Positions 71-26,245 of a DNA stretch of 32,000 nt are shown one piece after another. Origin of the DNA: an uncultured Erysipelotrichaceae bacterium (GTDB lineage: Bacteria > Bacillota_I > Bacilli_A > Erysipelotrichales > Erysipelotrichaceae); assembly GCA_942493105.1 (NCBI GenBank), contig OW818668.1:1170001-1202000 (forward strand), given 5' to 3'. The position numbers and the translations under genes were made by a program. Within the stretch, counting starts at the first letter, position 1, and every line of letters begins with the position of its first letter. The notes beneath the pieces were generated by a model, which did not search any database, was not told where the DNA came from, and was given only the letters and a program-made list of their open reading frames with translations.

Positions 71-823
71 TCAAATAAAGAAACCAAGATACCAATCTAA
101 GATCGGCTGAGCTGCTAAGAATGCGATAAAGATGCCTAAGGCAAGATGAGGTCCAAAAGGCATCATTGTTTTTTTATCTTTGCCTTTTTTAAGTAAGAAG
201 ATTGCTTGAATGCCTCCCAAGATAACACCCAGAAAGAAAGCCACAATGACGTTTGGGAAACCCAGAAGCAAGCCAGCAGCCCCCATCAATTTAACATCTG
301 CCCCACCAAATCCACCTGTCAAAACAGCCAGAATATACATAGGGATACTGATGACAAACATACCCAACAAAGTAAACATAAGATTGGTGGGATGAATCAA
401 ATAGGCAAGGAGCGCTAATATCACGATAAAGATACTGAATCCATCATCAAATTCCATGGTATCCAAATCAATCATGGCTAATACGACTAGATCAGCAGCC
501 AAAGCCATCCCGATCAAACTCATCCAAGTATTTTCAAATCTAAGATAACTTAAGGCAAACAAGATGCCTGTCAACAATTCGATGAGAGGATAACGCCAGG
601 AAATCTTTTCACCACAATAACGACATTTTCCTTTAAGGAAAAGAAATGAAAAGACAGGAAACAGATCAAGTGCCGATAATCCATGATGACAATGCGGACA
701 AAAAGAACGTCCTTTAACGAAATCCAGTTTTAAAGGAATACGATAAATCAATACATTCAGAAATGAACCAATGATGGTTCCAAAGACAAAAATAAAAAGT
801 GCAATGAGGTTTGTTAAGTTCAT
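71..823 (-). CDS. pilD: Type IV prepilin leader peptidase (A24 family, PilD/ComC-like)
   Basis: 250 aa polytopic membrane protein. It has the N-terminal Cys pairs CPHCHH...CRYCGEKISWRYPLIEL and a GGADVKLM aspartyl-protease motif, both typical of PilD/ComC. Confidence 0.9.
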   Translation of the reverse strand: MNLTNLIALFIFVFGTIIGSFLNVLIYRIPLKLDFVKGRSFCPHCHHGLSALDLFPVFSFLFLKGKCRYCGEKISWRYPLIELLTGILFALSYLRFENTWMSLIGMALAADLVVLAMIDLDTMEFDDGFSIFIVILALLAYLIHPTNLMFTLLGMFVISIPMYILAVLTGGFGGADVKLMGAAGLLLGFPNVIVAFFLGVILGGIQAIFLLKKGKDKKTMMPFGPHLALGIFIAFLAAQPILDWYLGFFI

Positions 824-843
824 GCACTTATTATATCAAAGGC

Positions 844-2667
844 TTATTCTACTGTGACAGATTTGGCTAAATTTCTTGGTTTATCAACATCCAATCCTTT
901 TAAAACAGAAGCATAGTAGGCAAAGAGCTGAAGTGGAATAATAGAGACCAAGGGAATCAAGGCAGGCTGTACCTTTTGGATCACAAAGATATGATCAGCC
1001 ACATCGGTTTCAAACATCGGATCATCTAAGGCAAACAAGTAAACTTGAGCTCCACGAGCCTTAACTTCTTTAATATTGGAAATGATTTTTTCGAAGAGTT
1101 TTTCTTGAGTCGCAATGGCGACAACAGGAACGTTATCCGTAATCAAGGATATGGTGCCGTGTTTCAATTCACCGGCAGGATACGCTTCTGAATGAATGTA
1201 TGAGATTTCTTTCAGTTTCAGCGAAGCTTCTAAAGCTAAGGCATAATCTAAACTTCTTCCTATAAAAAACAAAGAAGGTTTGGATACGATCAAGGATGCT
1301 AGTTGTTTAATGTGTTCTTGTTCATTCAAAATCCCAGATACCAAATCAGGGATCTTATGCAGATCTGAGATGAATTGTGATAGTTCCTCAGTAGAACACA
1401 ATCCATGGATGACCTGAAGTTTTTTAGCCAACAAGGTCAATAATGCAGATTGAACAAAGTAAGCTTTTGTTGAAGCCACAGCGATTTCTAAACCGGCCCA
1501 AGTATACAAGACCACATCTGCTTCACGAGCAATACTTGATCCTACCACATTGACAATGGCGATGACTTTAAGTCCATTGGATTTGGCTAAACGTAAAGCA
1601 GCCAAGGTATCTGCTGTTTCTCCGGATTGTGAGATCACCATGACGACTTCCGTTGGCTTTAATATAGGAGATCCATATCTGAATTCGCTGGCAATATGTA
1701 CATCACACGGAATCCTAGCATTAAGTTCAATCAAGTGCTTGCCAATCATGACAGCATGCATGGCTGTTCCACAGGCAACCAAATGAAATTTTGTGATGGA
1801 TTTTAAGAAATCATCGTTTAAACCTTCTTCACTAAAATCAATCTGTTGGTTCTTTATTCTGGGATTGATGGCATTCATCAACACTTTAGGCTGATCATGA
1901 ATTTCTTTCAGCATGAAATGCGGATAACCTTCTTTTTCGGCCGACTGTCGATCCCATGAAGCCGTTTGTAGTTCTTTATGGACGACTTCAAGATCATTGT
2001 CTAAAATCGTGACCTGATCTTTTTCGATGATGGCGATTTCGCCTTCTTCTAAAAGATAATAGTCACGTGTATAATCTAAGATCGCTGTAATGTCTGAAGC
2101 GATGAAGTTTTGACCTTGTCCAATCCCAACGATCAAAGGAGAATCTTTTCTAATCGCATAGATTTGACCTGGATGACCATCAAAAATCATGCCTACCGCA
2201 TAGGATCCACGTATTTTTTCGAGCACTTTTTTGATCGCATCTAAAGGATTGCCTTTTTGAACATAGTAATAATCTAGTAATTTAGCCAAAGCTTCAGTAT
2301 CTGTTGCGGATTCAAAAGTATAGCCCTTACGAATCATTCTGGCTTTAATGAAAAGATAGTTTTCGATGATCCCATTATGGACCAAGGAAACACGATGATT
2401 GCCATGGGGATGAGAATTCACATCTGAGGGCTCTCCGTGAGTTGCCCAACGCGTATGACCAATGCCTACGCCTCCATATAAAGGAAACGTTTTTAACTTG
2501 AGTTCAAGATTAGCAATACGTCCTTGAGTTTTAACGGTTTTGATTTTTCCTTCTTCAAAGATCGATAAACCTACTGAATCATAGCCTCTATATTCTAATT
2601 GTTTTAATCCCGCGACTAAAACATCAGCAGCTTGTTGCTTAGAAACAACGCCTACTATTCCACACAT
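844..2667 (-). CDS. glmS: Glutamine--fructose-6-phosphate aminotransferase (isomerizing)
   Basis: 607 aa. It has the MCGIVG N-terminal nucleophile Cys, two SIS domains and the C-terminal ...KPRNLAKSVTVE. The cognate ribozyme lies upstream. Confidence 0.97.
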   Translation of the reverse strand: MCGIVGVVSKQQAADVLVAGLKQLEYRGYDSVGLSIFEEGKIKTVKTQGRIANLELKLKTFPLYGGVGIGHTRWATHGEPSDVNSHPHGNHRVSLVHNGIIENYLFIKARMIRKGYTFESATDTEALAKLLDYYYVQKGNPLDAIKKVLEKIRGSYAVGMIFDGHPGQIYAIRKDSPLIVGIGQGQNFIASDITAILDYTRDYYLLEEGEIAIIEKDQVTILDNDLEVVHKELQTASWDRQSAEKEGYPHFMLKEIHDQPKVLMNAINPRIKNQQIDFSEEGLNDDFLKSITKFHLVACGTAMHAVMIGKHLIELNARIPCDVHIASEFRYGSPILKPTEVVMVISQSGETADTLAALRLAKSNGLKVIAIVNVVGSSIAREADVVLYTWAGLEIAVASTKAYFVQSALLTLLAKKLQVIHGLCSTEELSQFISDLHKIPDLVSGILNEQEHIKQLASLIVSKPSLFFIGRSLDYALALEASLKLKEISYIHSEAYPAGELKHGTISLITDNVPVVAIATQEKLFEKIISNIKEVKARGAQVYLFALDDPMFETDVADHIFVIQKVQPALIPLVSIIPLQLFAYYASVLKGLDVDKPRNLAKSVTVE

Positions 2668-2682
2668 ATATTATAAATTCCT

Positions 2683-2810
2683 TTCATCAGTGAACAGGTG
2701 GCTCTGTTGATTTAACCTTACTGTTGTCGACACACTGTTTGCCGAAGAGGCATCCGCCGAATCTTTCGATACTCCTCTTTCCTCGTCACTCCCAATGGAG
2801 CCGGGCGCTA
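2683..2810 (-). ncRNA. glmS ribozyme: glmS ribozyme (GlcN6P-dependent self-cleaving leader)
   Basis: The minus strand reads AGCGCCCGGCUCCAUUGGGAGUGACGAGGAAAGAGGAGUAUCGAAAGAUUCGGCGGAUGCCUCUUCGGC...GUAAGG. It carries the conserved core blocks AGCGCC, GACGAGG, AUCGAA and UUCGGCGGAUGCC. It sits immediately 5' of glmS. Ends are approximate. Confidence 0.85.
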
Positions 2811-3040
2811 TAATTGATCTTTATGCAACGTTTTTAGTTGTCTTCCTCCTTTACTATGTTAGTTTAGCATATCCTACCAAGTCTAAACAACACTACATTG
2901 TGTGCATTTTAGTAAAAATAAATACATATTCATCCTATTTGTTTTTATATGTTCAGAAATCGTTTCTAAAAGGTAAACAAATCAAGCAAGACAAGACTCA
3001 TTTTTAGACAATTTTCTCAGGACTTGTTTCATCTTTCCTA

Positions 3041-3079: not shown

Positions 3080-3156
3080 CGGGACGTAGCACAGCTTGGT
3101 AGTGCACTACCTTGGGGTGGTAGGGGTCGCGCGTTCAAATCGCGTCGTTCCGACCA
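3080..3156 (+). tRNA. tRNA-Pro, anticodon read as GGG
   Basis: Manual cloverleaf: acceptor CGGGACG/CGTTCCG, anticodon stem CTACC/GGTAG, loop TTGGGGT (G37), T-loop TTCAAAT, encoded CCA. Confidence 0.85.
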
Positions 3157-3158
3157 AT

Positions 3159-3235
3159 GCGGCCGTAGCTCAGTTGGATAGAGCGAGCGCCTCCTAAGCG
3201 CTAGGTCACAGGTTCAATTCCCGTCGGTCGCGCCA
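3159..3235 (+). tRNA. tRNA-Arg (anticodon CCT)
   Basis: Manual cloverleaf: acceptor GCGGCCG/CGGTCGC, anticodon stem AGCGC/GCGCT, loop CTCCTAA, encoded CCA. Confidence 0.85.
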
Positions 3236-3264
3236 AAAACCCTTAATGGAAGATTTATAAATAA

Positions 3265-3348
3265 GCACCAGTGGCGGAACTGGCAGACGCGCACGTTTGA
3301 GGGGCGTGTGATTTAACCGTACGGGTTCAAGTCCCGTCTGGTGCACCA
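3265..3348 (+). tRNA. tRNA-Leu (anticodon GAG), class II with long variable arm
   Basis: GCACCAG...CTGGTGC acceptor, anticodon stem CACGT/GCGTG, loop TTGAGGG, long variable arm, T-loop TTCAAGT, encoded CCA. Confidence 0.8.
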
Positions 3349-5354: not shown

Positions 5355-5513
5355 ACATCATGATAGGTTAATAGATATAAATTAGATTCTTACTCCTCAA
5401 TGACATAAATTGTATTTTTAGATCTATAAATAAAAGCCAAGTACTCATTGTCTTCTCTTAAGTTTCTATGGCAATTTTCATGAAGTTTGCTATAATTATG
5501 AAGCATCACAAAA

Positions 5514-5596
5514 GCACCAGTGGCGGAAATGGCATACGCGCACGTCTCAGAAGCGTGTGGGCAACCGTGCGGGTTCAAGTCCCGCCTGGTGCACCA
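5514..5596 (+). tRNA. tRNA-Leu (anticodon CAG), class II
   Basis: Acceptor and T-arm are nearly identical to the tRNA-Leu at 3265. Anticodon stem CACGT/GCGTG with loop CTCAGAA, encoded CCA. TATAAT at 5491..5496 lies upstream. Confidence 0.8.
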
Positions 5597-5685
5597 TCTT
5601 AGTGATTCACTTTTTGGTTTGAAAACCATTGAGTTAATAAACCATTGATTGATTCTAATAAGCACACCAACATCTAAAAAAGCAT

Positions 5686-5727
5686 AAAAAGCTGATCTCA
5701 ATGAAATTGATGATCAGCTTTTTTTAC
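5686..5727. terminator. Bidirectional intrinsic terminator (tRNA-Leu on plus strand, perR-like gene on minus strand)
   Basis: AAAAAGCTGATC...GATCAGCTTTTT inverted repeat with A-run and T-run flanks. It lies 4 nt beyond the stop of the minus-strand Fur-family gene. Confidence 0.8.
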
Positions 5728-11033: not shown

Positions 11034-12248
11034 ATGCTGAAAAAAATAGGAATGACCTTTCTAAGTTTGATCTTAGTGAGTGGATGTACGACCTCATCGA
11101 TCAAGAACTTATCCAAAACAACTGGCTCTTTAAAATTAGCTCAGTCTGCACAGTTAGATCCTGACCTTATCAAAGGGATCAATGATCTTGCGTTTAAGTT
11201 ACAAGATAAGAATCCTAGTGAAAATGAATTCATGTCAGCCTTAAGTATTTATTTGGCTTTGGCGATGACTTCTCATGGAACTGCCAATGCAAGCTATGAT
11301 CAATTCATGGATTTGCTTAATCCTAATGATCTTGATCAAACTGAATGGTTAAGTCAACTCAGAGATCTGCAAGGCAATCTCAATGCCTCTAGAGAAGTTA
11401 AGATCGCTTTATCCAATTCTTTATGGATCAGAGATGCTTTTGCGAAACAAGTCAAAGCAGACTTCTTAAAGCGCAATGAGACCTATTTTGGTGCCATGGT
11501 CGCTGCTTTAGATTTTGATTCGCCATCCGCTGTTGACGACATCAATACATGGGTCAAAAAGAATACCAATAAACTGATTGAAAAAACACTAGATCAGATC
11601 AATCCTTCTACGATCATGTTTTTAATCAATACAATCTATTTCAAGGGAGATTGGGTCAATCCCTTTGATAAAAACAAGACCACTGATCGAACCTTCTATG
11701 GGATCACTGAAGAGCATGTTAAATTTATGAATCAAATTGGTTCTTACTTGTATCACGAAGGGGAGGATCATCAATCTGTTTTATTGCCTTATGAAAGCAA
11801 TAAAGTAGGCATGTTGATCGTGATGGGCAACCAAGGACAGGTTGTGGTTGATTCATCAGAGACCTTTAAAGCTGAACTTGAAGCCTTGAAGAGTACCCGT
11901 ATTACACTGCGTTTACCAAAAGTTGACATTGCGACAAAGAGGATCCTCAATGAAGATCTGATCAAATTAGGATTAAGTGATCCATTTGATGCCTCAAAAG
12001 CAGATTTCTCAAATTTAGCTGACGCTGATTTATTCATCAGCCAAGTCTTACATAAAGCAAGACTCTTGATCGATGAAGAAGGCACTGAAGCTGCTGCTGT
12101 AACTTCAGTTTCCATAGATACAACATCCATTGAAATCACAGATTATGAAATGAGTATCGATCATCCGTTCCAAGTCTTCATCGTAGATTTAGAGCAGAAT
12201 TTGATCTTATTTAGTGGATATCTCAATGATGTCCAGGCTTCTGAATGA
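11034..12248 (+). CDS. Serpin-family serine protease inhibitor, predicted lipoprotein
   Basis: 404 aa with lipobox LVSGC. Serpin hinge/RCL EEGTEAAAVTSVS followed by the DHPFQVFI beta-strand signature. SD AGAGGAA. Confidence 0.85.
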   Translation: MLKKIGMTFLSLILVSGCTTSSIKNLSKTTGSLKLAQSAQLDPDLIKGINDLAFKLQDKNPSENEFMSALSIYLALAMTSHGTANASYDQFMDLLNPNDLDQTEWLSQLRDLQGNLNASREVKIALSNSLWIRDAFAKQVKADFLKRNETYFGAMVAALDFDSPSAVDDINTWVKKNTNKLIEKTLDQINPSTIMFLINTIYFKGDWVNPFDKNKTTDRTFYGITEEHVKFMNQIGSYLYHEGEDHQSVLLPYESNKVGMLIVMGNQGQVVVDSSETFKAELEALKSTRITLRLPKVDIATKRILNEDLIKLGLSDPFDASKADFSNLADADLFISQVLHKARLLIDEEGTEAAAVTSVSIDTTSIEITDYEMSIDHPFQVFIVDLEQNLILFSGYLNDVQASE

Positions 12249-12253
12249 ATGTT

Positions 12254-12285
12254 AAGTTTCGGTTAAAACCGAAACTTTTCTTTTC
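12254..12285 (+). terminator. Rho-independent terminator after the serpin gene
   Basis: 9-bp stem AAGTTTCGG/CCGAAACTT, loop TTAAAA, then a T-rich tail. Confidence 0.8.
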
Positions 12286-12317
12286 AGTTAACAAAGTTGG
12301 GCGTATAATTATAAAGT

Positions 12318-18294: not shown

Positions 18295-18765
18295 ATGAAC
18301 TTTTTTAAACATAACGATCTCAACATTTATAGTCCACTTCAAGGACAAGTAATCTCATTGAATCAAGTTAAAGACGAGATGTTTTCTCAGGCCATGATGG
18401 GTCCTGGTATCGCGATTATGCCAGAAAACGGAAGAGTTTTTGCTCCCTTTGATGGACAAGTCAAGTTTGTGTTTCCTACGAAACATGCGATTGGTTTAGT
18501 CAGCTCTTCAGGTGTCGAACTTTTGATTCATATGGGTATCGATACCGTTCAACTTGAAGGTCAACACTTTACAGTATTGATCAAAGATAAACAGAAAATA
18601 AAAAAGGGTCAAGAGATTGCTCGCTTCGATTTGGAAGCTCTTGTATTAAAACAGATTGATCCAACGGTCATCTTGGTTTTGACAGATAGTGTGGGTTTAA
18701 CTTTAGAATATTGTGAGACCGTACATGTTGAAACAGGAGACCTATTAATTAAGGTTACTCGCTAA
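18295..18765 (+). CDS. PTS glucose-family EIIA component
   Basis: 156 aa. VKDEMFSQAMMGPGIAIMP and ELLIHMGIDTV (phosphorylatable His) motifs. No SD upstream. Confidence 0.88.
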   Translation: MNFFKHNDLNIYSPLQGQVISLNQVKDEMFSQAMMGPGIAIMPENGRVFAPFDGQVKFVFPTKHAIGLVSSSGVELLIHMGIDTVQLEGQHFTVLIKDKQKIKKGQEIARFDLEALVLKQIDPTVILVLTDSVGLTLEYCETVHVETGDLLIKVTR

Positions 18766-18790
18766 AGAAATTTATTATATATTTAATAAA

Positions 18791-18815
18791 AAATGAACCT
18801 TTCGGTTCATTTTTC
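18791..18815. terminator. Bidirectional intrinsic terminator shared by the convergent EIIA and pilT-like genes
   Basis: AAAAATGAACC-TTTC-GGTTCATTTTT. The 3' arm overlaps the stop of the minus-strand ATPase gene at 18807..18809. Confidence 0.8.
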
Positions 18816-19880
18816 ATGAGTTTCAGCAAGTCTCTTTTTAACCAATACTGGATCAAAGCTATGAATAATGGCTTCCTTAGCATCTATCTTTTTATCTTTG
18901 ACCATAGAGATCAACATCGTATCCATAGAAATCATGCCTTCATTGACCGATGAAGAAATCGCATTCATCAATTGATGGGTCTTGCCTTCACGAATCAAAT
19001 TCTTGATTGCAGGAGTAGAATTCATCACCTCAAAGACAGGAATCAGATTGCCTTCTTTATCTTGGACCAATTGTTGGGATATGACGGCTTGCAGGGTCAT
19101 CGACAATTGGACTCTGACTTGTTGTTGCTGAGCAGGCGGAAAGACATCGATGATGCGATCAACAGTATTGGCTGCACCTAAAGTATGCAAAGTTGAGAAA
19201 ACCAAGTGACCTGTTTCAGCAGCCGTAATGGCTAATGATATGGTATCTAGATCGCGCATTTCTCCTACAAACAAGACGTCTGGAGCTTGTCTAAGCGCTG
19301 CTTTTAAAGCTGAGGATGTTGATGTGCAATCGGTCCCAATCTCACGCTGTGAGACCACGGATAGGTTGTGGGTGTATAAGAATTCTATAGGGTCTTCAAT
19401 GGTAACGATGTGGGCTTCTCTGGTTTGATTGATCTTATCGATCAAGGTCGCAACAGTGGATGATTTACCGCTTCCAGCTGGACCACTGATGATGACCAAA
19501 CCTTTTCTCATGTCTGCGAATTTTGTGATTTCTTTAGGGATGTGCAGTTCTTCCGCATTGGGAATCTGAAATTTTACGATTCTTAAGACAGCGGCTAATG
19601 AACCTCTTTGACGATAAACATTGACTCTAAAACGAGCCACTTGTGGGATCGAAAACGAGAAATCATCATCGCCTTGAAGAGATAATGATTCTTTAGTATT
19701 ACGATGAGCTAAGACATAGATCTCATTGATGAGATTCTCACTTACGATAGGGACTGTTTTTTCTTGATTCAAAGGGGTCAAACGATTGTTGACTTTGATC
19801 TCAATGGGACAGCCCGCAACGATGAAGATGTCTGAGGCTTTGGCACTGATGGCGCTTTGGATGATTTCTTGGATGTTCAT
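18807..19880 (-). CDS. pilT: PilT-type (retraction-class) type IV filament ATPase
   Basis: 357 aa. Walker A GPAGSGKSST, Walker B VLFVGEMRD. PilT-signature blocks AAETGHLVFSTLHTLGAANTVDRIIDVFP and AIKNLIREGKTHQ. No GspE-N or zinc-finger domains. Confidence 0.8.
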   Translation of the reverse strand: MNIQEIIQSAISAKASDIFIVAGCPIEIKVNNRLTPLNQEKTVPIVSENLINEIYVLAHRNTKESLSLQGDDDFSFSIPQVARFRVNVYRQRGSLAAVLRIVKFQIPNAEELHIPKEITKFADMRKGLVIISGPAGSGKSSTVATLIDKINQTREAHIVTIEDPIEFLYTHNLSVVSQREIGTDCTSTSSALKAALRQAPDVLFVGEMRDLDTISLAITAAETGHLVFSTLHTLGAANTVDRIIDVFPPAQQQQVRVQLSMTLQAVISQQLVQDKEGNLIPVFEVMNSTPAIKNLIREGKTHQLMNAISSSVNEGMISMDTMLISMVKDKKIDAKEAIIHSFDPVLVKKRLAETHEK

Positions 19881-20356
19881 TGGGGGCCTTTCCAGATCGG
19901 ATCTCCATCAAGGGAGTAATCCTGATCGTTCTCTATGGTTAAGATTTGACCCAGAAGGGTAAAATCTGAAGAACTGTGAGTAGTTGAAATTCTGACTTTG
20001 ATCGTAACTGAATATGGACCTGATTTATTTGAGAAAGAGAAAGTATAAGGATCTTCACCGATCACTAATTCTGGATGATTTTGATAAAAGGCTTGGATCG
20101 AAGGATTCAAATCATTTCCAATCGGTAAGAAATCATTGATCTGATCAAACTCAGATTTAAGCTTCTGATACATCGTCAAACTTAAAGCTTGAGCTTCAGT
20201 GCTGCCTTCAAGTAAAGTTAAACTTCGTTTAAGTCCTTTATTGTCGGCATTGGCACTAACTAAGGATAGGCTTGCAAATCCTAAAACACTCAAGACAATC
20301 AAGACAGTCAAAATGGTAGGTAAACCAAAGACTGTATTTAATGATTCTTTTCTCAT
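19877..20356 (-). CDS. Small bitopic protein, possibly a ComGG/PilX_N-like minor pseudopilin
   Basis: 159 aa. N-terminus MRKESLNTVFG-LPTILTVLIVLSVLG (Gly followed by a hydrophobic helix, no Glu5). ATGA overlaps at both ends. Confidence 0.4.
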   Translation of the reverse strand: MRKESLNTVFGLPTILTVLIVLSVLGFASLSLVSANADNKGLKRSLTLLEGSTEAQALSLTMYQKLKSEFDQINDFLPIGNDLNPSIQAFYQNHPELVIGEDPYTFSFSNKSGPYSVTIKVRISTTHSSSDFTLLGQILTIENDQDYSLDGDPIWKGPQ

Positions 20357-20742
20357 TGAGGCAACTCTGAAAGTGCACTGACTTTCATGTGGAATACGAT
20401 TTGACCCGATTTATTTTTTAAACTCAGATCAGCTTTGTTTAAGCCCTCTGTTTGTGTTAAGGTAATGATCATCGTATAGTGTACATCACTTGTGTTGGCT
20501 TCACCATGAGCATCATATGTCGTTGTGAACGATGGCGACATGTTGGCCCAATCTTGATTGGGTTGACGTAAGGACTCTGCCTGTATGACCATGAGTTCTG
20601 AAAGCTTTCTTAAGGCCATGGTTTCTGTATGGATCGTAGCTGCCTTGGTAAACATTGAAAAGGCAACCACTAAGGCTACACTTAAGATAATAAGACTTAA
20701 GGTAAACTCAAGCAAGAAAAAGTGCAATTGTTTATTTTTCAT
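20353..20742 (-). CDS. Small bitopic protein with a degenerate prepilin-like N-terminus
   Basis: 129 aa. In MKNKQLH-FFLLEFTLSLIIL, Phe+1 and Glu+5 are possible but His replaces the canonical Gly at -1. Confidence 0.4.
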   Translation of the reverse strand: MKNKQLHFFLLEFTLSLIILSVALVVAFSMFTKAATIHTETMALRKLSELMVIQAESLRQPNQDWANMSPSFTTTYDAHGEANTSDVHYTMIITLTQTEGLNKADLSLKNKSGQIVFHMKVSALSELPQ

Positions 20743-21200
20743 GAGGAAGCACCTGAAGCCATCACAGTGTAGGTGAACTGAACGGTCTTGCCTTCTAGAT
20801 CGGTATATTGAATGATGATCTTATGGGTTTGAAGCGTAAAACTAAGATTTTTAAGCGGCAATATTTTCTGTGCTTCTAAAGGTTGGATCAGGGCTGTCTC
20901 TGAGCTTTGTTCAAGCAGGTATCCGTCCACTTCATATACTAAAGTATAATAATCATCTTGTTTAAAACATAAAGCTTGGATATGTCCAGAGCTAATGACT
21001 GTGATCTGATCTTGTCCATCATGCTGTTTGATGCGATTGTTGAAGTAAAGAAGGGCACTGTGACGATTTAAACTGAGTTCATTATCTTTGACCATGGTGG
21101 TGTAAAATTGAGCACCATAAAGCACCACAAAGCCTGAGCCACCTAAAAACAAGGTAATCAAAGATAAAATGATCAGGTTTTTAAAGGATGTTCGTTTCAT
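20739..21200 (-). CDS. Small bitopic protein (ComGF-like or PilN/O-like candidate)
   Basis: 153 aa. MKRTS-FKNLIILSLITLFLGG N-terminal helix followed by a beta-rich domain. No canonical G-FTLxE motif. Confidence 0.35.
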   Translation of the reverse strand: MKRTSFKNLIILSLITLFLGGSGFVVLYGAQFYTTMVKDNELSLNRHSALLYFNNRIKQHDGQDQITVISSGHIQALCFKQDDYYTLVYEVDGYLLEQSSETALIQPLEAQKILPLKNLSFTLQTHKIIIQYTDLEGKTVQFTYTVMASGASS

Positions 21201-21487
21201 TGCGGATCCCTCAGATAAACACTCACATCAGGTCGTATATTGGCTCCAATCGTTTTATAGTACACAAAGTATTGATCAGAACTGATCTGTATCCCATAGT
21301 GCTCAATCAAATAGTCCAGTTGCGCCGGATAAAAGCCTTCTTGGGCATAACATAGATTTAAAGCCCTTTGAATCGCATTTTCGACTTGTATGCGACGTTC
21401 TTCTTGAGTTGATCTTTGGATCATGGATGAAAAGAACCAAAGACTCAAGATGACCAAAGGAATCAATAACCAGCGTAGGATCTTCAT
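21197..21487 (-). CDS. 96-aa ComGC-sized pilin-like protein lacking a class III signal peptide
   Basis: An N-terminal TM (WLLIPLVILSLWFF) is followed by an amphipathic helix and then ..AQEGFYPAQLDYLIEHYGI... That segment resembles the G-x-Y/T-P-x-x-L-x-x-L segment of ComGC/GspG pilins. It occupies the comGC position after the platform gene. Confidence 0.4.
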   Translation of the reverse strand: MKILRWLLIPLVILSLWFFSSMIQRSTQEERRIQVENAIQRALNLCYAQEGFYPAQLDYLIEHYGIQISSDQYFVYYKTIGANIRPDVSVYLRDPQ

Positions 21488-21488
21488 A

Positions 21489-22514
21489 TTAACCCAAAGA
21501 ACTCATGATTCCAATGAGTGGAATGATCAAAGAGAAAAGGACTAAGGCAACAAACCCAGTCAATGTGAGAATCAAGATCGGTTCAACTTTATTCAATAAG
21601 GCTGTTAAACTGCTTTCAGAATCTTCCTGTGTTTTCTTTGAGACATGTTCCATGACTTCATCTGTTTTACCTGTTTTATACGCTATGGTCAATGTGTTTT
21701 GAAGCAAAGGAGGATAAATACTGGTGTTGACTAAAAGGTCGTATAAACCTTGAGAAGGGCTCAGATCTTTGATTTTAGCATCAAGCTTATCTTTGAGTTG
21801 CCCTGCAGGAACTTGTGCCATCGCAAGTGCCATGGCTTCTTGCTGTTGAATCCCGGCTCTTAAAACCAATTGACTGATGAAACTAAAACGAGCCAAGTCT
21901 GCTTTATATTTTCTGGATGGGAACAAACGTAATACTTTATCGCCTAAATCAACAGGGGTCTTATTGAGTCTACCTTTAATGAGTGTAAATACAATGATGA
22001 CAATGATACTGATCAAGGCACCTAAAGCGATGATCACAAAGCCTTTAGAGATCAATAGGAGCATTTGGATCCAAGCATCAAGGGAACCACCTAAGCTTTC
22101 ATATACATCTTGAAAGACAGGGATGACCACAAAGGTCAACACAGCCATCACCAAAATCAAAATGGTCATCAACATCAACGGCATGATCATGATGTCTTTT
22201 AAGAAAGATTTTGTTTCAGCTTGTCTTTGGTAATAATGAGCCAAATGGGTTGATACAGAAGCTTCTTGACCAATGGTTTCAGCTGCTCTCATGGCTAAAA
22301 CTGCTTCTTTTGGAAAGCGAGGATCTTGTGCCATCGCTAAGGAAAGTTTACCTGTTTCTCTTAAGTTTTCTTTTAGCTGTTTAAGATCGATTTGATCCGC
22401 TGTATCTAGAAACCCCAGGCCTTCTCTTAAATCCATCCCAGACTCATAAATCAGTGCCACTTGGGTACTAAAGAGACTTAAGGATTCCTCATCATAACTT
22501 GTGTTTTTTTTCAT
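21489..22514 (-). CDS. Type II secretion / type IV pilus platform protein (GspF/PilC/ComGB family)
   Basis: Two T2SSF-like repeats (..LIYESGMDLREGL...RFPKEAVLAMRAAETIG.. and ..LVLRAGIQQQEAM...IYPPLLQNTLTIAYKTG..) with 3 TM segments. The start is set at the ATG at 22514 (SD AAAGGAG 5 nt upstream), not the TTG at 22529. Confidence 0.8.
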   Translation of the reverse strand: MKKNTSYDEESLSLFSTQVALIYESGMDLREGLGFLDTADQIDLKQLKENLRETGKLSLAMAQDPRFPKEAVLAMRAAETIGQEASVSTHLAHYYQRQAETKSFLKDIMIMPLMLMTILILVMAVLTFVVIPVFQDVYESLGGSLDAWIQMLLLISKGFVIIALGALISIIVIIVFTLIKGRLNKTPVDLGDKVLRLFPSRKYKADLARFSFISQLVLRAGIQQQEAMALAMAQVPAGQLKDKLDAKIKDLSPSQGLYDLLVNTSIYPPLLQNTLTIAYKTGKTDEVMEHVSKKTQEDSESSLTALLNKVEPILILTLTGFVALVLFSLIIPLIGIMSSLG

Positions 22515-22525
22515 ACGATCTCCTT

Positions 22526-23440
22526 TCAATAGAAGAGCTTTTCTTGATATTTTCCAAAATAAGGACCTTGAGCATCAAAGGTAGGGTCAATTCTTTTCCA
22601 GGTTTCTTTTTCAAAATAAATCGAAGGATTGATCCATCCGATCCCATCGATATATGTTTCTACCCAAGCATGATAACCAGGATCTGTATATCCTGTAACC
22701 ACTTTGGTTGGGATATGCTGTACCCGAAGCATCGCTGTCATCAGGGCTGCATAATCGAAACAAATCCCTTTTTGTTTGGTATAGGCATCATCAAGATCGG
22801 GTATCATAAATGTTGTTAAGGCTTCTTTGACTTTATCATAATCATAATCGATGTTGGTGACGATGTATTTATATACAGCATAAACTCTTTCAAGCTGACT
22901 CTTAGAGTCTTTGGTCAATTCAAAGGATTTTCGAACGGCCAAGGTCTCTTTATCATAATCGACGATTTGATTGGGATACAGATAGATGCTGAGTTCATCA
23001 GTCAAATTTGCGGTGATTTCTATTGATGCGGTCACACTGTAGGCATTATCAACTTTTTGTTTCAAAGTTCGAATTGTATACGTTCCTGAACCTTTCATAA
23101 GGGGTAAGATGGTGAATTTGTTTTCAAATACACTATAGGTATAAATCAAATCGCCCTGTATGACCTGAACCTTCTTGGTGTTTTCGTCATTTGGACCTTT
23201 AACGCAGACATAACCTTGTGCTTTATTTGAATAGTCGATCAGGTATCCGTTTTTTTCAAAAACTGTTTTTTGTGGACAAGAAGGCAACAAAATTTCATCG
23301 ATTGTATATTGTTTACTGATGGGGCCTTCAGTGGGATATTTTCTGAATGGATTATAGAATTGAAGAACGATAAAAGAGCCAAGCCCTAAAACTAGGGCTA
23401 CGATAAGAATGACAATGATGATGCGACCACGTTTAGTCAT
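22526..23440 (-). CDS. Membrane-anchored transglutaminase-like (papain-fold Cys-His-Asp) protein
   Basis: Single N-terminal TM (RIIIVILIVALVLGLGSFIVL). C-terminal core KGICFDYAALMTAML...GYHAWVETY...RIDPT. The start is set at the ATG at 23440 with GGAG 8 nt upstream. The upstream extension in the ORF track contains the promoter -10. Confidence 0.75.
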   Translation of the reverse strand: MTKRGRIIIVILIVALVLGLGSFIVLQFYNPFRKYPTEGPISKQYTIDEILLPSCPQKTVFEKNGYLIDYSNKAQGYVCVKGPNDENTKKVQVIQGDLIYTYSVFENKFTILPLMKGSGTYTIRTLKQKVDNAYSVTASIEITANLTDELSIYLYPNQIVDYDKETLAVRKSFELTKDSKSQLERVYAVYKYIVTNIDYDYDKVKEALTTFMIPDLDDAYTKQKGICFDYAALMTAMLRVQHIPTKVVTGYTDPGYHAWVETYIDGIGWINPSIYFEKETWKRIDPTFDAQGPYFGKYQEKLFY

Positions 23441-23468
23441 TAAACCGGCTCCTATTTTTCTGTTTTCA

Positions 23469-23477
23469 TTATAACAC
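23469..23477 (-). promoter_or_regulatory. Extended -10 promoter (TGTTATAAT) of the filament-like operon
   Basis: The minus strand reads TGTTATAAT, 28 nt upstream of the ATG at 23440. No good -35 hexamer is present. Confidence 0.45.
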
Positions 23478-23575
23478 AATGAAATAAACTCAAGCTTGTT
23501 GTACCTTTAGTAAACAATCAATATATTTCTTTATTTATAAGGACTTAAGCGAGGTCATTTGATATAATATTGGCT

Positions 23576-24835
23576 ATGAAATCATCTGTACTAAAAGCAC
23601 TTAAAGCCATTTCGACTCATCATTATGTCCATGCATTACAAAAGTCTTTGATGTCGGTTGTCGGAGTCAGTTTTATCGCAGGATTACTGTTGATCATTCA
23701 AAACCCACCTGTTTCAAGCATCAGCAATGGTGAATTCATTCGTGTTGATTGGGTCAACTTTGCTGCAGATAATGCTGGTCTTTTAAGTCTTGGTGTCCAA
23801 ATGACTTTAGGCATGATCGGATTGTACACATTGATTGCCTTCATCATACATCTGGCTCATCATTATAAAATGAATCCTTTTCATCCGGTTTTATCAGGTG
23901 TCAGTGCTTATTTGATTTTATCTGTGGGTTTTGTGGTCCAAGGATCAGGCCTTGATCTTGATCTGAAATATTTGGGATATTCTGGGATTTTTGGAGCTTT
24001 TATATTAGGGATCTTGGTGGTTGAGGTATCACGCTTATCAATCTATGTGAGATCGAAAATAAACATAAAGTCTGAAGTTTCAAGTCACTTGATTCAACCC
24101 TTGGAATCTTCATTAAGTACTTTGCTGATAATATTGTTTGCACTTGCCTTAAGATTTTGGTTTCAGCAACAAAATATTCTTTTGCCAGATTTGATTTTAA
24201 AAGCAATTTTACCACTACTTAAGGAATCTAATACGCTATGGTTTGTAATGGGAGTCATATTGTTCAGTAAATTATTATGGTTTGTCGGACTAAATGGAAA
24301 CAGCTTGATTTTGGTCAGTTTGATTCCTTTGATGTTGATCAATAATGCTCAAAACCTTGTTGCTTATCAAAATGATATGGCGATTCCGTATATTATATCA
24401 ACGGGTTTTCTTTTCTTTGAATTGGGTGTCTTACCTTTAGCGACAGCGATTTTGCTTTTCTCAAAAAATAAGCAACAAAAAGGAAGTGCCAGGTTAGGGA
24501 TACTGCCCGCTTTATTCAATTTCCAAGAAACGATATTAACCGGTTTACCTTTAACTTTTAATGTTAATTATTTGATTCCCTACCTATTGACCAGTGTGTT
24601 ATCTCTTTCGGTATCTTATCTTGCAATGGCAAACTTTCTTATCAGTAAACCGTTATTTGCGATGTCCTTTGCTTTACCAGGTTTTCTTGGGGCTTTCTTG
24701 AGCACGATGGATTGGAAAGCCATCGTTTTATGGATGCTTCTGTATGGGCTATGTACCTTGATTTATTGGCCATTTATTCGCGAAATTGAAAGAATAGAAC
24801 CAGCGGTTCAAGATGAGCATTTGAATAATACTTAG
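23576..24835 (+). CDS. PTS lactose/cellobiose-family EIIC permease
   Basis: About 419 aa polytopic protein. The N-terminus ..HYVHALQKSLMSVVGVSFIAGLLLIIQNPP resembles the conserved ChbC/CelB-type EIIC start. The ATG at 23576 is preferred over the TTG at 23570. Confidence 0.75.
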   Translation: MKSSVLKALKAISTHHYVHALQKSLMSVVGVSFIAGLLLIIQNPPVSSISNGEFIRVDWVNFAADNAGLLSLGVQMTLGMIGLYTLIAFIIHLAHHYKMNPFHPVLSGVSAYLILSVGFVVQGSGLDLDLKYLGYSGIFGAFILGILVVEVSRLSIYVRSKINIKSEVSSHLIQPLESSLSTLLIILFALALRFWFQQQNILLPDLILKAILPLLKESNTLWFVMGVILFSKLLWFVGLNGNSLILVSLIPLMLINNAQNLVAYQNDMAIPYIISTGFLFFELGVLPLATAILLFSKNKQQKGSARLGILPALFNFQETILTGLPLTFNVNYLIPYLLTSVLSLSVSYLAMANFLISKPLFAMSFALPGFLGAFLSTMDWKAIVLWMLLYGLCTLIYWPFIREIERIEPAVQDEHLNNT

Positions 24836-24871
24836 AATATCTTGTGATACACTATAGATAGAGGTAAAATT

Positions 24872-25300
24872 ATGGAACATTGGTTTTGGATCATCATTGC
24901 CTTGGCGACACTAGGGCTTGAGATTGCGACCGTTGGGACTTTGGTTTCAATATGGTTTTCACTTGGTGCTTTTGCAGCATATATCGCATATTTGATTAAT
25001 TTGGATTTCTTTGCCCAATCGATGATTTTCTTGGTGGTCAGCCTTGTTGCTTTCTTGACCATTAGACCATTGGTAAGGCGCTATTTTACAGTTAAACAAC
25101 AACCCACCAATGCGGATCGATATATTGGACAAAAAGTTACTGTTACTGAAGCAGTTTCCACTGAACATTGGGGTGCAGTCGTTATTCAAGGCGTTCGTTG
25201 GAGCATTCGTGAAGTTAAGAATCAATCGGTCAATGTTGGAGAGACCGTTGAAATCGTAGCCCTTGAAGGGGCAAAGTTATTGGTCAAAAAGGTCCAATAG
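24872..25300 (+). CDS. NfeD-family membrane protein
   Basis: 142 aa. Hydrophobic N-terminal half plus a C-terminal OB-like domain (..GQKVTVTEA....GAVVIQGVRWSIR...G..VEIVALEGAKLLVKK). It lies upstream of an SPFH gene. Confidence 0.8.
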   Translation: MEHWFWIIIALATLGLEIATVGTLVSIWFSLGAFAAYIAYLINLDFFAQSMIFLVVSLVAFLTIRPLVRRYFTVKQQPTNADRYIGQKVTVTEAVSTEHWGAVVIQGVRWSIREVKNQSVNVGETVEIVALEGAKLLVKKVQ

Positions 25301-25312
25301 GAAAAGGAACAT

Positions 25313-26245
25313 ATGGAACAAATCATTGGTTTAATTTTAACGATTTTCTTTGTCCTCATATTTATCGCACTGTTGAGTATGACCATCAAGATCATACCTC
25401 AATCCCATGCTTATGTCGTTGAAAGATTGGGTGCTTATTCGCATACCTTGCCTAAAGGCTTGCATATGTTGTTTCCGATCGTTGATCGGATTGCACTGGA
25501 TGTACCCTTAAAAGAGCAAGTCTATGACTTCCCACCACAACCGGTCATCACGAAAGATAACGTTACGATGATGATCGATACGATCGTCTTCTTTCAGATC
25601 TTAGATCCAAAGCTGTTTGCGTATGGTGTTCAAAACCCCATCAAGGCCATTGAAGCTTTAACCGCAACGACGTTAAGAAATATCATTGGGGATCTTGAAT
25701 TGGATGATACTTTGACTTCAAGAGAAGTGATTAATACCAGAATGCGTATTATCTTGGATGAAGCCACTGATCCTTGGGGCATCAAAGTTAATCGTGTAGA
25801 AGTTAAAAATATCTTGCCTCCAAAAGACATTCAAGAAGCCATGGAAAAACAAATGCGTGCAGAACGTGAAAGACGTTCTTCAATTCTGTTGGCTGAAGGT
25901 GAAAAACGTTCAGCGATCTTAATGGCTGAAGGTGAAAAGGAATCTGTCGTATTAAGATCTGAAGCTAAGAAACAAGCTTTGATCGCAGAAGCTGAAGGGC
26001 AAGCACAAGCCATGGAGCGTGTATATGAAGCTCAGGCACGTGGGATTGAATTGATCAAGAAAGCCAATCCTGGTCAAGCGTATCTAACTCTAAAAGGTTT
26101 TGAAGCTTTAGAGAAGGTCGCTAATGGTCAAGCTACAAAGATCATCATTCCTTCAGAATTACAGAATTTAGCGTCTGTCATCGGGGCTGCACAAGCCATA
26201 TTGGATGATAAGAAACCTGCAGTCAAAGAAAAAGAAGTCAAATAA
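25313..26245 (+). CDS. SPFH/band-7 (stomatin/prohibitin-like) protein
   Basis: 310 aa. N-terminal TM, SPFH core (IIPQSHAYVVERLGAY...), and a C-terminal coiled-coil with repeated AEGEK motifs. Confidence 0.9.
   Translation: MEQIIGLILTIFFVLIFIALLSMTIKIIPQSHAYVVERLGAYSHTLPKGLHMLFPIVDRIALDVPLKEQVYDFPPQPVITKDNVTMMIDTIVFFQILDPKLFAYGVQNPIKAIEALTATTLRNIIGDLELDDTLTSREVINTRMRIILDEATDPWGIKVNRVEVKNILPPKDIQEAMEKQMRAERERRSSILLAEGEKRSAILMAEGEKESVVLRSEAKKQALIAEAEGQAQAMERVYEAQARGIELIKKANPGQAYLTLKGFEALEKVANGQATKIIIPSELQNLASVIGAAQAILDDKKPAVKEKEVK

Follow-up and report, generated by a model that had tools for sequence, protein, structure and literature searches.

PilT is the textbook retraction motor. The described systems that come closest to the operon reported here are the ComG pseudopilus, the type IVa pilus of Firmicutes (Clostridium, Streptococcus sanguinis) and the type II secretion system. 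According to one review, the type IVa pilus genes of monoderms come as conserved sets that include PilM/N/O, and the system is recognised by PilT, PilM/N/O and canonical pilin N-termini (PMC6916266). A study of the Vibrio cholerae MSHA pilus has PilT promoting extension as well as retraction (PMC9815625), and the survey by Denise et al. discusses retraction of the Tad pilus without any PilT (PMC6668835). The Erysipelotrichales are reported to carry ordinary comGA-GG operons (PMC12786226). The operon reported here lies on contig OW818668.1 of an uncultured Erysipelotrichaceae bacterium (assembly GCA_942493105.1). The window is the stretch of 32,000 nucleotides from positions 1,170,001 to 1,202,000 of that contig, and all coordinates below are counted from its first letter. 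Seven tightly packed genes run head to tail on the minus strand at 18807-23440. They encode, in order, a transglutaminase-fold enzyme, a membrane platform protein, four small single-pass proteins that we call S1 to S4, and an ATPase.

The operon and the ComG pseudopilus have much in common. Each is a single operon in a monoderm host with one ATPase, one ComGB-sized platform (341 aa here) and several small pilin-type genes in a row that are alike in size and order. Neither has PilM/N/O or a secretin, and neither operon contains a prepilin peptidase gene. Weak matches of the small proteins recur only with ComGE, ComGF and ComGG. However, the ATPase here is of the PilT family and is encoded at the 3' end, the platform falls below the ComGB cut-off, and there are four pilin-like genes where ComG has five. 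Only one of the four has Gly-1 and only one has Glu5, and the first gene is invariably the enzyme. The type IVa pilus of Firmicutes shares a PilT-family ATPase, a PilC-type platform and four minor-pilin-like proteins with the operon. Type II secretion shares a platform, a short pseudopilin-like set and maybe a short fibre, and the best NCBIfam match of the platform is GspF, but here there is no GspE-type ATPase, no secretin and no GspC/L/M, and the hosts are monoderm.

We argue, at a probability of roughly 60%, that the operon encodes a distinct and compact pseudopilus machine that is powered by PilT and has an obligatory surface enzyme. Its components, an ATPase, a platform and subunits with a predicted pilin shape, are the core of a type IV filament (TFF) system. 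It does not qualify as a type IVa, Com, type II or Tad system.

Core proteins and conserved gene order

The ATPase passes the NCBIfam model TIGR01420 pilT_fam (PilT/PilU) with 407 bits against a cut-off of 319. It falls short of every other model in question: ComGA (143 vs 300 bits), PilB (120 vs 676), the GspE models (115-119 vs 617-630) and the TadA family (40 vs 373). Against the PDB it matches PilT over its full length at 296 bits, PilU at 228 and PilB at about 90. An initial annotation, made by reading the window alone, had called this protein PilT rather than ComGA or PilB, and that was correct because both sets of scores favour PilT. The TIGR01420 and full-length PDB matches are those expected of PilT, the type IVa retraction ATPase. 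The Pfam domain T2SSE (2e-45) places the protein among the secretion ATPases of the superfamily of type IV filaments, and the Walker A, Asp box, Walker B, His box and AIKNLIRE motifs are legible in its translation. The platform belongs to the polytopic GspF/PilC/TadB type of the same superfamily by its Pfam T2SSF domain. Its NCBIfam scores of 115 bits for GspF, 90 for PilC and 78 for ComGB (cut-off 240) are all far below the equivalog cut-offs.

Features of the operon and the prepilin peptidase gene of the window (positions counted from the first letter of the window)
Feature	Position	Strand	Evidence
Transglutaminase-fold enzyme, 304 aa, N-terminal signal anchor	22526..23440	-	Pfam Transglut_core 4e-22, DUF553 2e-9
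GspF/PilC-type membrane platform protein, 341 aa	21489..22514	-	Pfam T2SSF, two stretches, 3e-22
S1, 96 aa, single-pass membrane protein	21197..21487	-	no Pfam/NCBIfam family
S2, 153 aa, DUF4860 single-pass membrane protein	20739..21200	-	Pfam DUF4860 8e-12
S3, 129 aa, pilin-like, Glu at Glu5-equivalent position	20353..20742	-	homologue alignment
S4, 159 aa, Gly before hydrophobic helix, no Glu5	19877..20356	-	homologue alignment
PilT-family hexameric ATPase, 357 aa, sole ATPase of the module	18807..19880	-	NCBIfam TIGR01420
Candidate extended -10 promoter element TGTTATAAT	23468..23476	-	direct sequence reading
Intrinsic terminator hairpin, overlaps the stop codon of the PilT-family gene	18786..18817	-	RNA fold
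Prepilin peptidase (A24 family)	71..823	-	Pfam A24_N_bact 5e-35, Peptidase_A24 2e-12

To see how widely the operon occurs, an alignment of the enzyme was run against a single genome of each species, and at least 543 species-level genomes encode a relative. The best 80 loci of these were searched with profiles of all seven proteins, and 84 distinct loci entered the synteny count. The seven genes stand in the same order in 75 of the 84, and most of the remaining loci are on truncated contigs. Because so many distinct loci share one order, the arrangement is far beyond chance. Homologues of the ATPase with 54-73% identity and differing flanks all sit within the same seven genes. The spacing is tight across the loci as well, with a median gap of -4 nt for both S2-S3 and S3-S4. 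The hosts, which come from the gut and from the environment, include Erysipelotrichaceae, Holdemania, Coprobacillaceae and Thomasclavelia; the Lachnospiraceae Dorea, Enterocloster bolteae, Hungatella, Lacrimispora, Butyrivibrio, Agathobacter and Eisenbergiella; and Oscillospiraceae, Butyricicoccus, Christensenellaceae (Christensenella), Eubacteriaceae, Anaerovoracaceae and Peptococcaceae. There are variants too. In one Bacillota locus (L083, 500-5500) the enzyme gene comes after PilT, and a clostridial locus (L073, 8001-8729) has a lone paralogue of the enzyme without the other six genes. The initial annotation had left room for a routine comG operon or for an arrangement found in no related genome. 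What we find instead is small proteins below the pilin thresholds, an ATPase that is not ComGA, and synteny that is strong across the Erysipelotrichia and many Clostridia.

The initial annotation saw no PilM/N/O, secretin or obvious major pilin in the operon, and there are none. The open reading frame (ORF) list and Pfam give no PilM/N/O and no canonical major pilin in the operon of the window, and neither is found near the related loci. Flanks of about 8 kb at 87 loci contain no further T2SSE ATPase or platform gene, no A24 peptidase and no canonical prepilin. A regular-expression search around the related loci also gave no canonical prepilins, and clustering of the neighbours at 80 loci gave no recurrent pilus gene. 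Since other pilus genes are absent from the flanks of so many loci, the module is a conserved, self-contained unit.

These results can be set against what each described system would have. For the type IVa pilus there is no second T2SSE-type ORF that could be PilB, and PilM/PilN/PilO and a major pilin with a canonical signal are missing from the operon and from the nearby loci searched. For Com, the ATPase and the platform score far under the ComGA and ComGB cut-offs, and matches to ComGD-GG are all sub-threshold, with S1 giving none to ComGC or any other. For type II secretion the GspE scores are low and the operon has no ORF for GspD or GspC/L/M. For the Tad (type IVc) pilus the TadA-family score is lower still, and the operon has one platform gene instead of the TadB/TadC pair and no Flp-like ORF.

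Small proteins and the surface enzyme

About 80 syntenic homologues were aligned for each of S1 to S4. The shape of a type IV pilin is a very long N-terminal helix, with hydrophobic residues in the first third, and a beta head after it. S1 and S2 are predicted to have such a helix-plus-sheet shape. The AlphaFold2 model of S1 (pLDDT 81) has a helix of 49 residues (2-50), a second helix (57-64) and a beta-hairpin head. That of S2, made with 104 diverse homologues aligned (pLDDT 95.3), has a helix at 3-59 and then eight beta-strands. S1 is the most conserved of the four, with a motif C-Y-A-x-E-G-x-Y-P in which C, G, Y and P are invariant in 79 homologues. S2 belongs to DUF4860 (PF16152), a family without an assigned function in Pfam that is matched by 80 of 81 syntenic S2 homologues. 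A few S2 members have weak matches to ComGF and ComGG.

S3 and S4 carry the sequence marks. S3 begins MKNKQLH|FFLLE in the window. Its Glu12 is invariant (80/80 homologues) within a consensus x-F-L-M-E at the start of the hydrophobic helix, and the residue at -1 is Gly in just 17 of the 80 and His in the window. The top matches of the S3 profile in the PDB are type IV pilins. PilE1 of S. sanguinis has E = 0.014, and Thermus PilA5 and PilA4, geopilin and MshA follow, with the Glu of S3 aligned on Glu5 of the pilins. Among NCBIfam models S3 has sub-threshold matches to ComGE (8/80 members) and ComGF (7/80), with scattered matches to PilV and ComGG. S4 reads ...VFG|LPTIL in the window. Its Gly11 is invariant in 78 of 78 homologues, after a leader that is mostly 8-15 residues long and often has Lys/Arg, and before some 20 hydrophobic residues with Leu or Ile at +5. 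The only recurrent match of S4 is ComGG, in 16 of 78 members and at best 4e-5. A Gly-1 without Glu5 is the pattern of the tip pilins GspK, PilX and ComGG, and S4 weakly resembles proteins of the ComGG/GspK type in its sequence. Comparison of the S1-S4 family profiles with each other gives weak links over short stretches (81-92% probability in three of the four pairs compared, 42% for S3-S2).

We hold with moderate confidence that S1 to S4 are highly diverged pilin-type proteins. Taken by the class III signal, S3 has the invariant Glu but seldom the Gly, S4 has the invariant Gly but no Glu5, and S1 and S2 have neither. With similar moderate confidence, a plausible peptidase site appears to be kept only by S4, and by S3 in some lineages. 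The initial annotation stated that no small protein has a canonical G|FTLxE motif. This stands in that no pilin threshold is reached, but it missed that the Glu of S3 and the Gly of S4 are invariant remnants of a pilin. The label 'type IV filament-like' is therefore better founded than that annotation could know. Two smaller points belong here. S1 carries a single invariant Cys (Cys46) right before E-G-x-Y-P. In many Clostridia S2, S3 and S4 have a Cys in the middle of the membrane helix (e.g. ...VLCL...), where the window has Ser, Val or Gly. A likeness of A-x-x-A-L-x-x-C-Y-x-x-E-G-x-Y-P in S1 to Y-x-x-D-x-G-x-Y-P in GspG was considered and dropped; hhalign aligned 'YP' alone.

The enzyme belongs to the transglutaminase-like (papain-fold) superfamily, with a Transglut_core domain and a Cys-His-Asp triad. 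All 84 homologues keep the Cys (GICFDYA), the His (YHAW) and the Asp (DPT). The best solved relative by family profile is PDB 3isr (2.5e-9), an uncharacterised putative cysteine protease. The N-terminus has a lipobox in 33 of the 84 and is hydrophobic, as a signal peptide or anchor, in 31; it is unassigned in the other 20, where trimming of the start codon possibly removed the signal. Because most homologues have a lipobox or a hydrophobic N-terminus, the enzyme is probably exposed at the surface and acts outside the membrane. One can imagine that it cross-links the subunits. However, there is no invariant Gln or Lys in the alignments of S1 to S4, which makes this less likely, and hydrolysis, of the wall or of some substrate, is therefore the favoured prediction.

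We can now propose how the machine might work. The hexameric PilT-family ATPase would dock on the PilC-like platform in the membrane and would use ATP to shift S1-S4 between the membrane and a short fibre, or pseudopilus. This fibre would extend into or through the cell wall. S4, with its invariant Gly, its lack of Glu5 and its likeness to ComGG, would cap the fibre, and the rest of the initiating complex would be S3, with its Glu5-like residue, and S2, with DUF4860. The repeating unit would be S1, which is both the smallest of the four and the most conserved. The enzyme outside the membrane would most plausibly be a peptidase, which would either make way for the fibre through the peptidoglycan or act on a subunit or cargo to process it. 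We infer the fibre, the place of each subunit in it, PilT as the sole motor (for extension or for both directions) and the part of the enzyme.

Alternative explanations

Several points weigh against this proposal. None of S1-S4 reaches the threshold of a Pfam or NCBIfam pilin family, and S1 and S2 have neither Gly-1 nor a conserved Glu5. The S1 profile finds pilins in the PDB only at E ~1. Foldseek against the PDB gives no significant match for the S1 model (pilins at E ~6-9) or the S2 model (pilins at E 0.2). Most solved pilins lack the N-terminal helix, so we treat these two structural searches as uninformative and not as negative. Alignment of S1-S4 by hhalign to the single E. coli proteins GspG, GspI, GspJ and GspK is not significant; S3 and GspI align over the N-terminal 19 residues at 6% probability. 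PilT is classically for retraction, and the literature searched has no case of a filament system with PilT only. In one locus (L047, Butyrivibrio sp. X503, 11300-12300) a CheY-like gene takes the position of PilT and no PilT is adjacent. Finally, the search for pilus genes covered flanks of about 8 kb, and genes for an extension ATPase and a major pilin may lie in other parts of the genome.

The last point leads to the main rival, which is a canonical type IVa pilus whose genes are split. The operon would then encode PilC, PilT and four divergent minor pilins, and PilB, PilM/N/O, the major pilin and the peptidase would be elsewhere. The ATPase is a bona fide PilT-family member, four is the usual number of core minor pilins, and an S4 without Glu5 next to an S3 with Glu5 fits the known pattern of the tip complex (GspK, PilX, ComGG). 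The window itself has a prepilin peptidase gene, and the tight translational coupling of S1 to the platform argues against S1 as an abundant major subunit. However, nothing like pilB, pilM/N/O, pilD or a canonical prepilin accompanies the operon within about 8 kb in any of the 87 loci, and this does not sit well with the conserved sets including PilM/N/O that the monoderm review describes (PMC6916266). Processed minor pilins retain Gly-1, but S1 and S2 lack it and S3 rarely has it. The invariant enzyme in first position is absent from the pilus literature searched. We consider the split pilus unlikely. More doubtful still is a divergent Com pseudopilus that serves DNA uptake and in which ComGA gave way to a PilT-family ATPase whose gene shifted to the 3' end. 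Its appeal is the gene order, since a platform followed by proteins of ~96, ~150, ~125 and ~150 aa mirrors comGB-GC-GD/GE/GF-GG. The platform is of ComGB size, and the sub-threshold matches of S2, S3 and S4 are mostly to Com minor pilins. Against this the ComGA and ComGB scores are far under their cut-offs, and S1 is not similar to ComGC and is modelled with a beta-hairpin head. The Erysipelotrichales are reported to have ordinary comGA-GG (PMC12786226), so the module would be additional to Com.

One can also imagine that there is no filament at all. S1-S4 would be anchored accessory or stator proteins, analogous to PilN/PilO or GspL/GspM, that couple a PilT-PilC motor to the enzyme for some process of the cell envelope. 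The lack of significant structural or profile matches of S1 and S2 to pilins agrees with this, as does the absence of a canonical class III signal from both, and tight gene coupling in the manner of 1:1 suits a fixed complex. It does not explain why the Glu of S3 and the Gly of S4 are invariant exactly where a pilin requires them, why the top PDB matches of the S3 profile are pilins, or why S4 matches ComGG recurrently. PilN/PilO and GspM have a ferredoxin-like fold, unlike the pilin shape, and an N-terminal helix of 49-57 residues with a beta head, as in the S1 and S2 models, is the shape of a pilin. We regard this scenario as improbable, to about the same degree as the Com one.

The PilT-powered pseudopilus machine is the reading that we prefer. 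A bolder version of it would make the operon an unrecognised class of monoderm filament. In that case PilT would be the sole assembly motor, or would drive both ways, the subunits would be mostly leaderless or degenerate with no need of a peptidase, and the obligatory enzyme would cut the wall or modify the fibre. We put this forward tentatively, as something that may well not hold in full. If it does, such a machine is common in the Clostridia and Erysipelotrichia of the human gut. A widespread machine with PilT only would bear directly on what sets the direction of type IV filament motors, and on whether an ATPase clade is by nature one of extension or of retraction.

The initial annotation did not recognise the architecture as any described type IVa or type IVb pilus, Tad, Com or type II secretion layout, and no description turned up in the literature searched, the coverage of which is partial. 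The layout is absent from the available parts of the TFF survey of Denise et al. (PMC6668835), the monoderm pilus review (PMC6916266) and the Gram-positive survey of Imam et al. (PMC3244431). Within the same partial coverage there is no mention of DUF4860 and no paper that combines PilT and a transglutaminase with pilus or clostridial topics, so the tie of a transglutaminase-fold enzyme to a filament machine is a combination not found in the literature searched. DUF4860 gains a conserved operon context and a predicted, pilin-shaped fold. Three further protein families, S1, S3 and S4, are defined that are absent from Pfam and NCBIfam. At least several hundred species have the operon, among them the prominent gut taxa Dorea, Enterocloster bolteae, Hungatella, Agathobacter, Butyricicoccus, Christensenella and Holdemania. 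A surface function that has escaped study, for instance in adhesion, secretion or DNA uptake, could therefore depend on it.

Junctions, signals and neighbouring genes

The seven minus-strand ORFs named in the initial annotation are all in the ORF list, and the junctions were read correctly. The four ATGA start/stop overlaps are exact at 19877-80, 20353-56, 20739-42 and 21197-200, and the gap between the platform and S1 genes is the 1 nt at 21488. The letters of the 11-nt gap at 22515-22525 are AAGGAGATCGT; this is a Shine-Dalgarno sequence, and the ATG comes right after it at 22514. For the first gene the likeliest start is ATG 23440, which has AGGAG upstream at 23449-23453 and gives the 304 aa product. 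A start at TTG 23479, to which the ORF extends, would give 317 aa and is less likely. It must be noted that the initial annotation deduced from tight spacing that all seven products, enzyme included, co-assemble in stoichiometric amounts, and that claim was an overreach.

An extended -10 element had been proposed ahead of the first gene. The motif TGTTATAAT is there, but the coordinates given for it were one base off. A consensus scan found no -35 partner and did not report the motif itself, so it is no more than plausible as a promoter. No Rfam element, such as a c-di-GMP riboswitch, is found in the leader, in the operon or upstream. The shared terminator is real as a structure. The hairpin folds at -15.8 kcal/mol (z = -6.45), none of 200 shuffles folds equally well, and there are T-runs on both strands. 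Since a convergent phosphotransferase system (PTS) EIIA gene, ending at 18765, faces the terminator, it is probably bidirectional.

The genes around the operon vary. In 16 of 80 loci PilT is directly followed on the same strand by a gene for a protein of ~400 aa with a winged-helix/BTAD N-terminus and a degenerate GGDEF-like C-terminus (L007 10056-11315, L006 10276-11457, L014 6083-7279, L022 12646-13812 and others); the window is without it. From its domains this protein may be a regulator of the operon. Genes for very large surface adhesins with cadherin-like repeats, SpaA-like or thioester domains adjoin the operon in three of the loci looked at first (L005 1448-5443, L006 11466-19056, L007 1-53). 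An adhesin as a general partner of the operon was rejected, as no single type recurs across the 80 loci. An ORF of at least 800 aa is nearby in 27 of the 80, and several of these are one recurring family of ~850-890 aa. In the window PTS EIIC, NfeD and Band 7 (SPFH) genes adjoin the operon at 23570-26245 (+). The same arrangement is found at 2666-5329 of L003, a locus whose ATPase is 73% identical to that of the window, and synteny beyond the seven genes is confined to that lineage.

The prepilin peptidase gene lies 18 kb from the operon, as the initial annotation had it, next to glmS. That it processes S4, or S3 in other lineages, is only conjecture, because the flanks of about 8 kb searched at the 87 related loci are free of A24 genes. 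It is at the edge of the window and may be part of a pilus locus, comG or another, that lies immediately beyond it; the ordinary comG operons reported in the Erysipelotrichales would likewise need an A24 peptidase. A glmS ribozyme (Rfam RF00234, 57 bits) at 2678-2820 (-) is directly upstream of glmS at 844-2667 (-), whose product has SIS and GATase domains. This pair is ordinary for Firmicutes. A cluster of tRNA-Pro(GGG), tRNA-Arg(CCU) and tRNA-Leu(GAG) follows at 3080-3348 (+), and a separate tRNA-Leu(CAG) is at 5514-5596 (+). The latter is overlapped by a 103-aa ORF at 5390-5701 (-) that is probably spurious.

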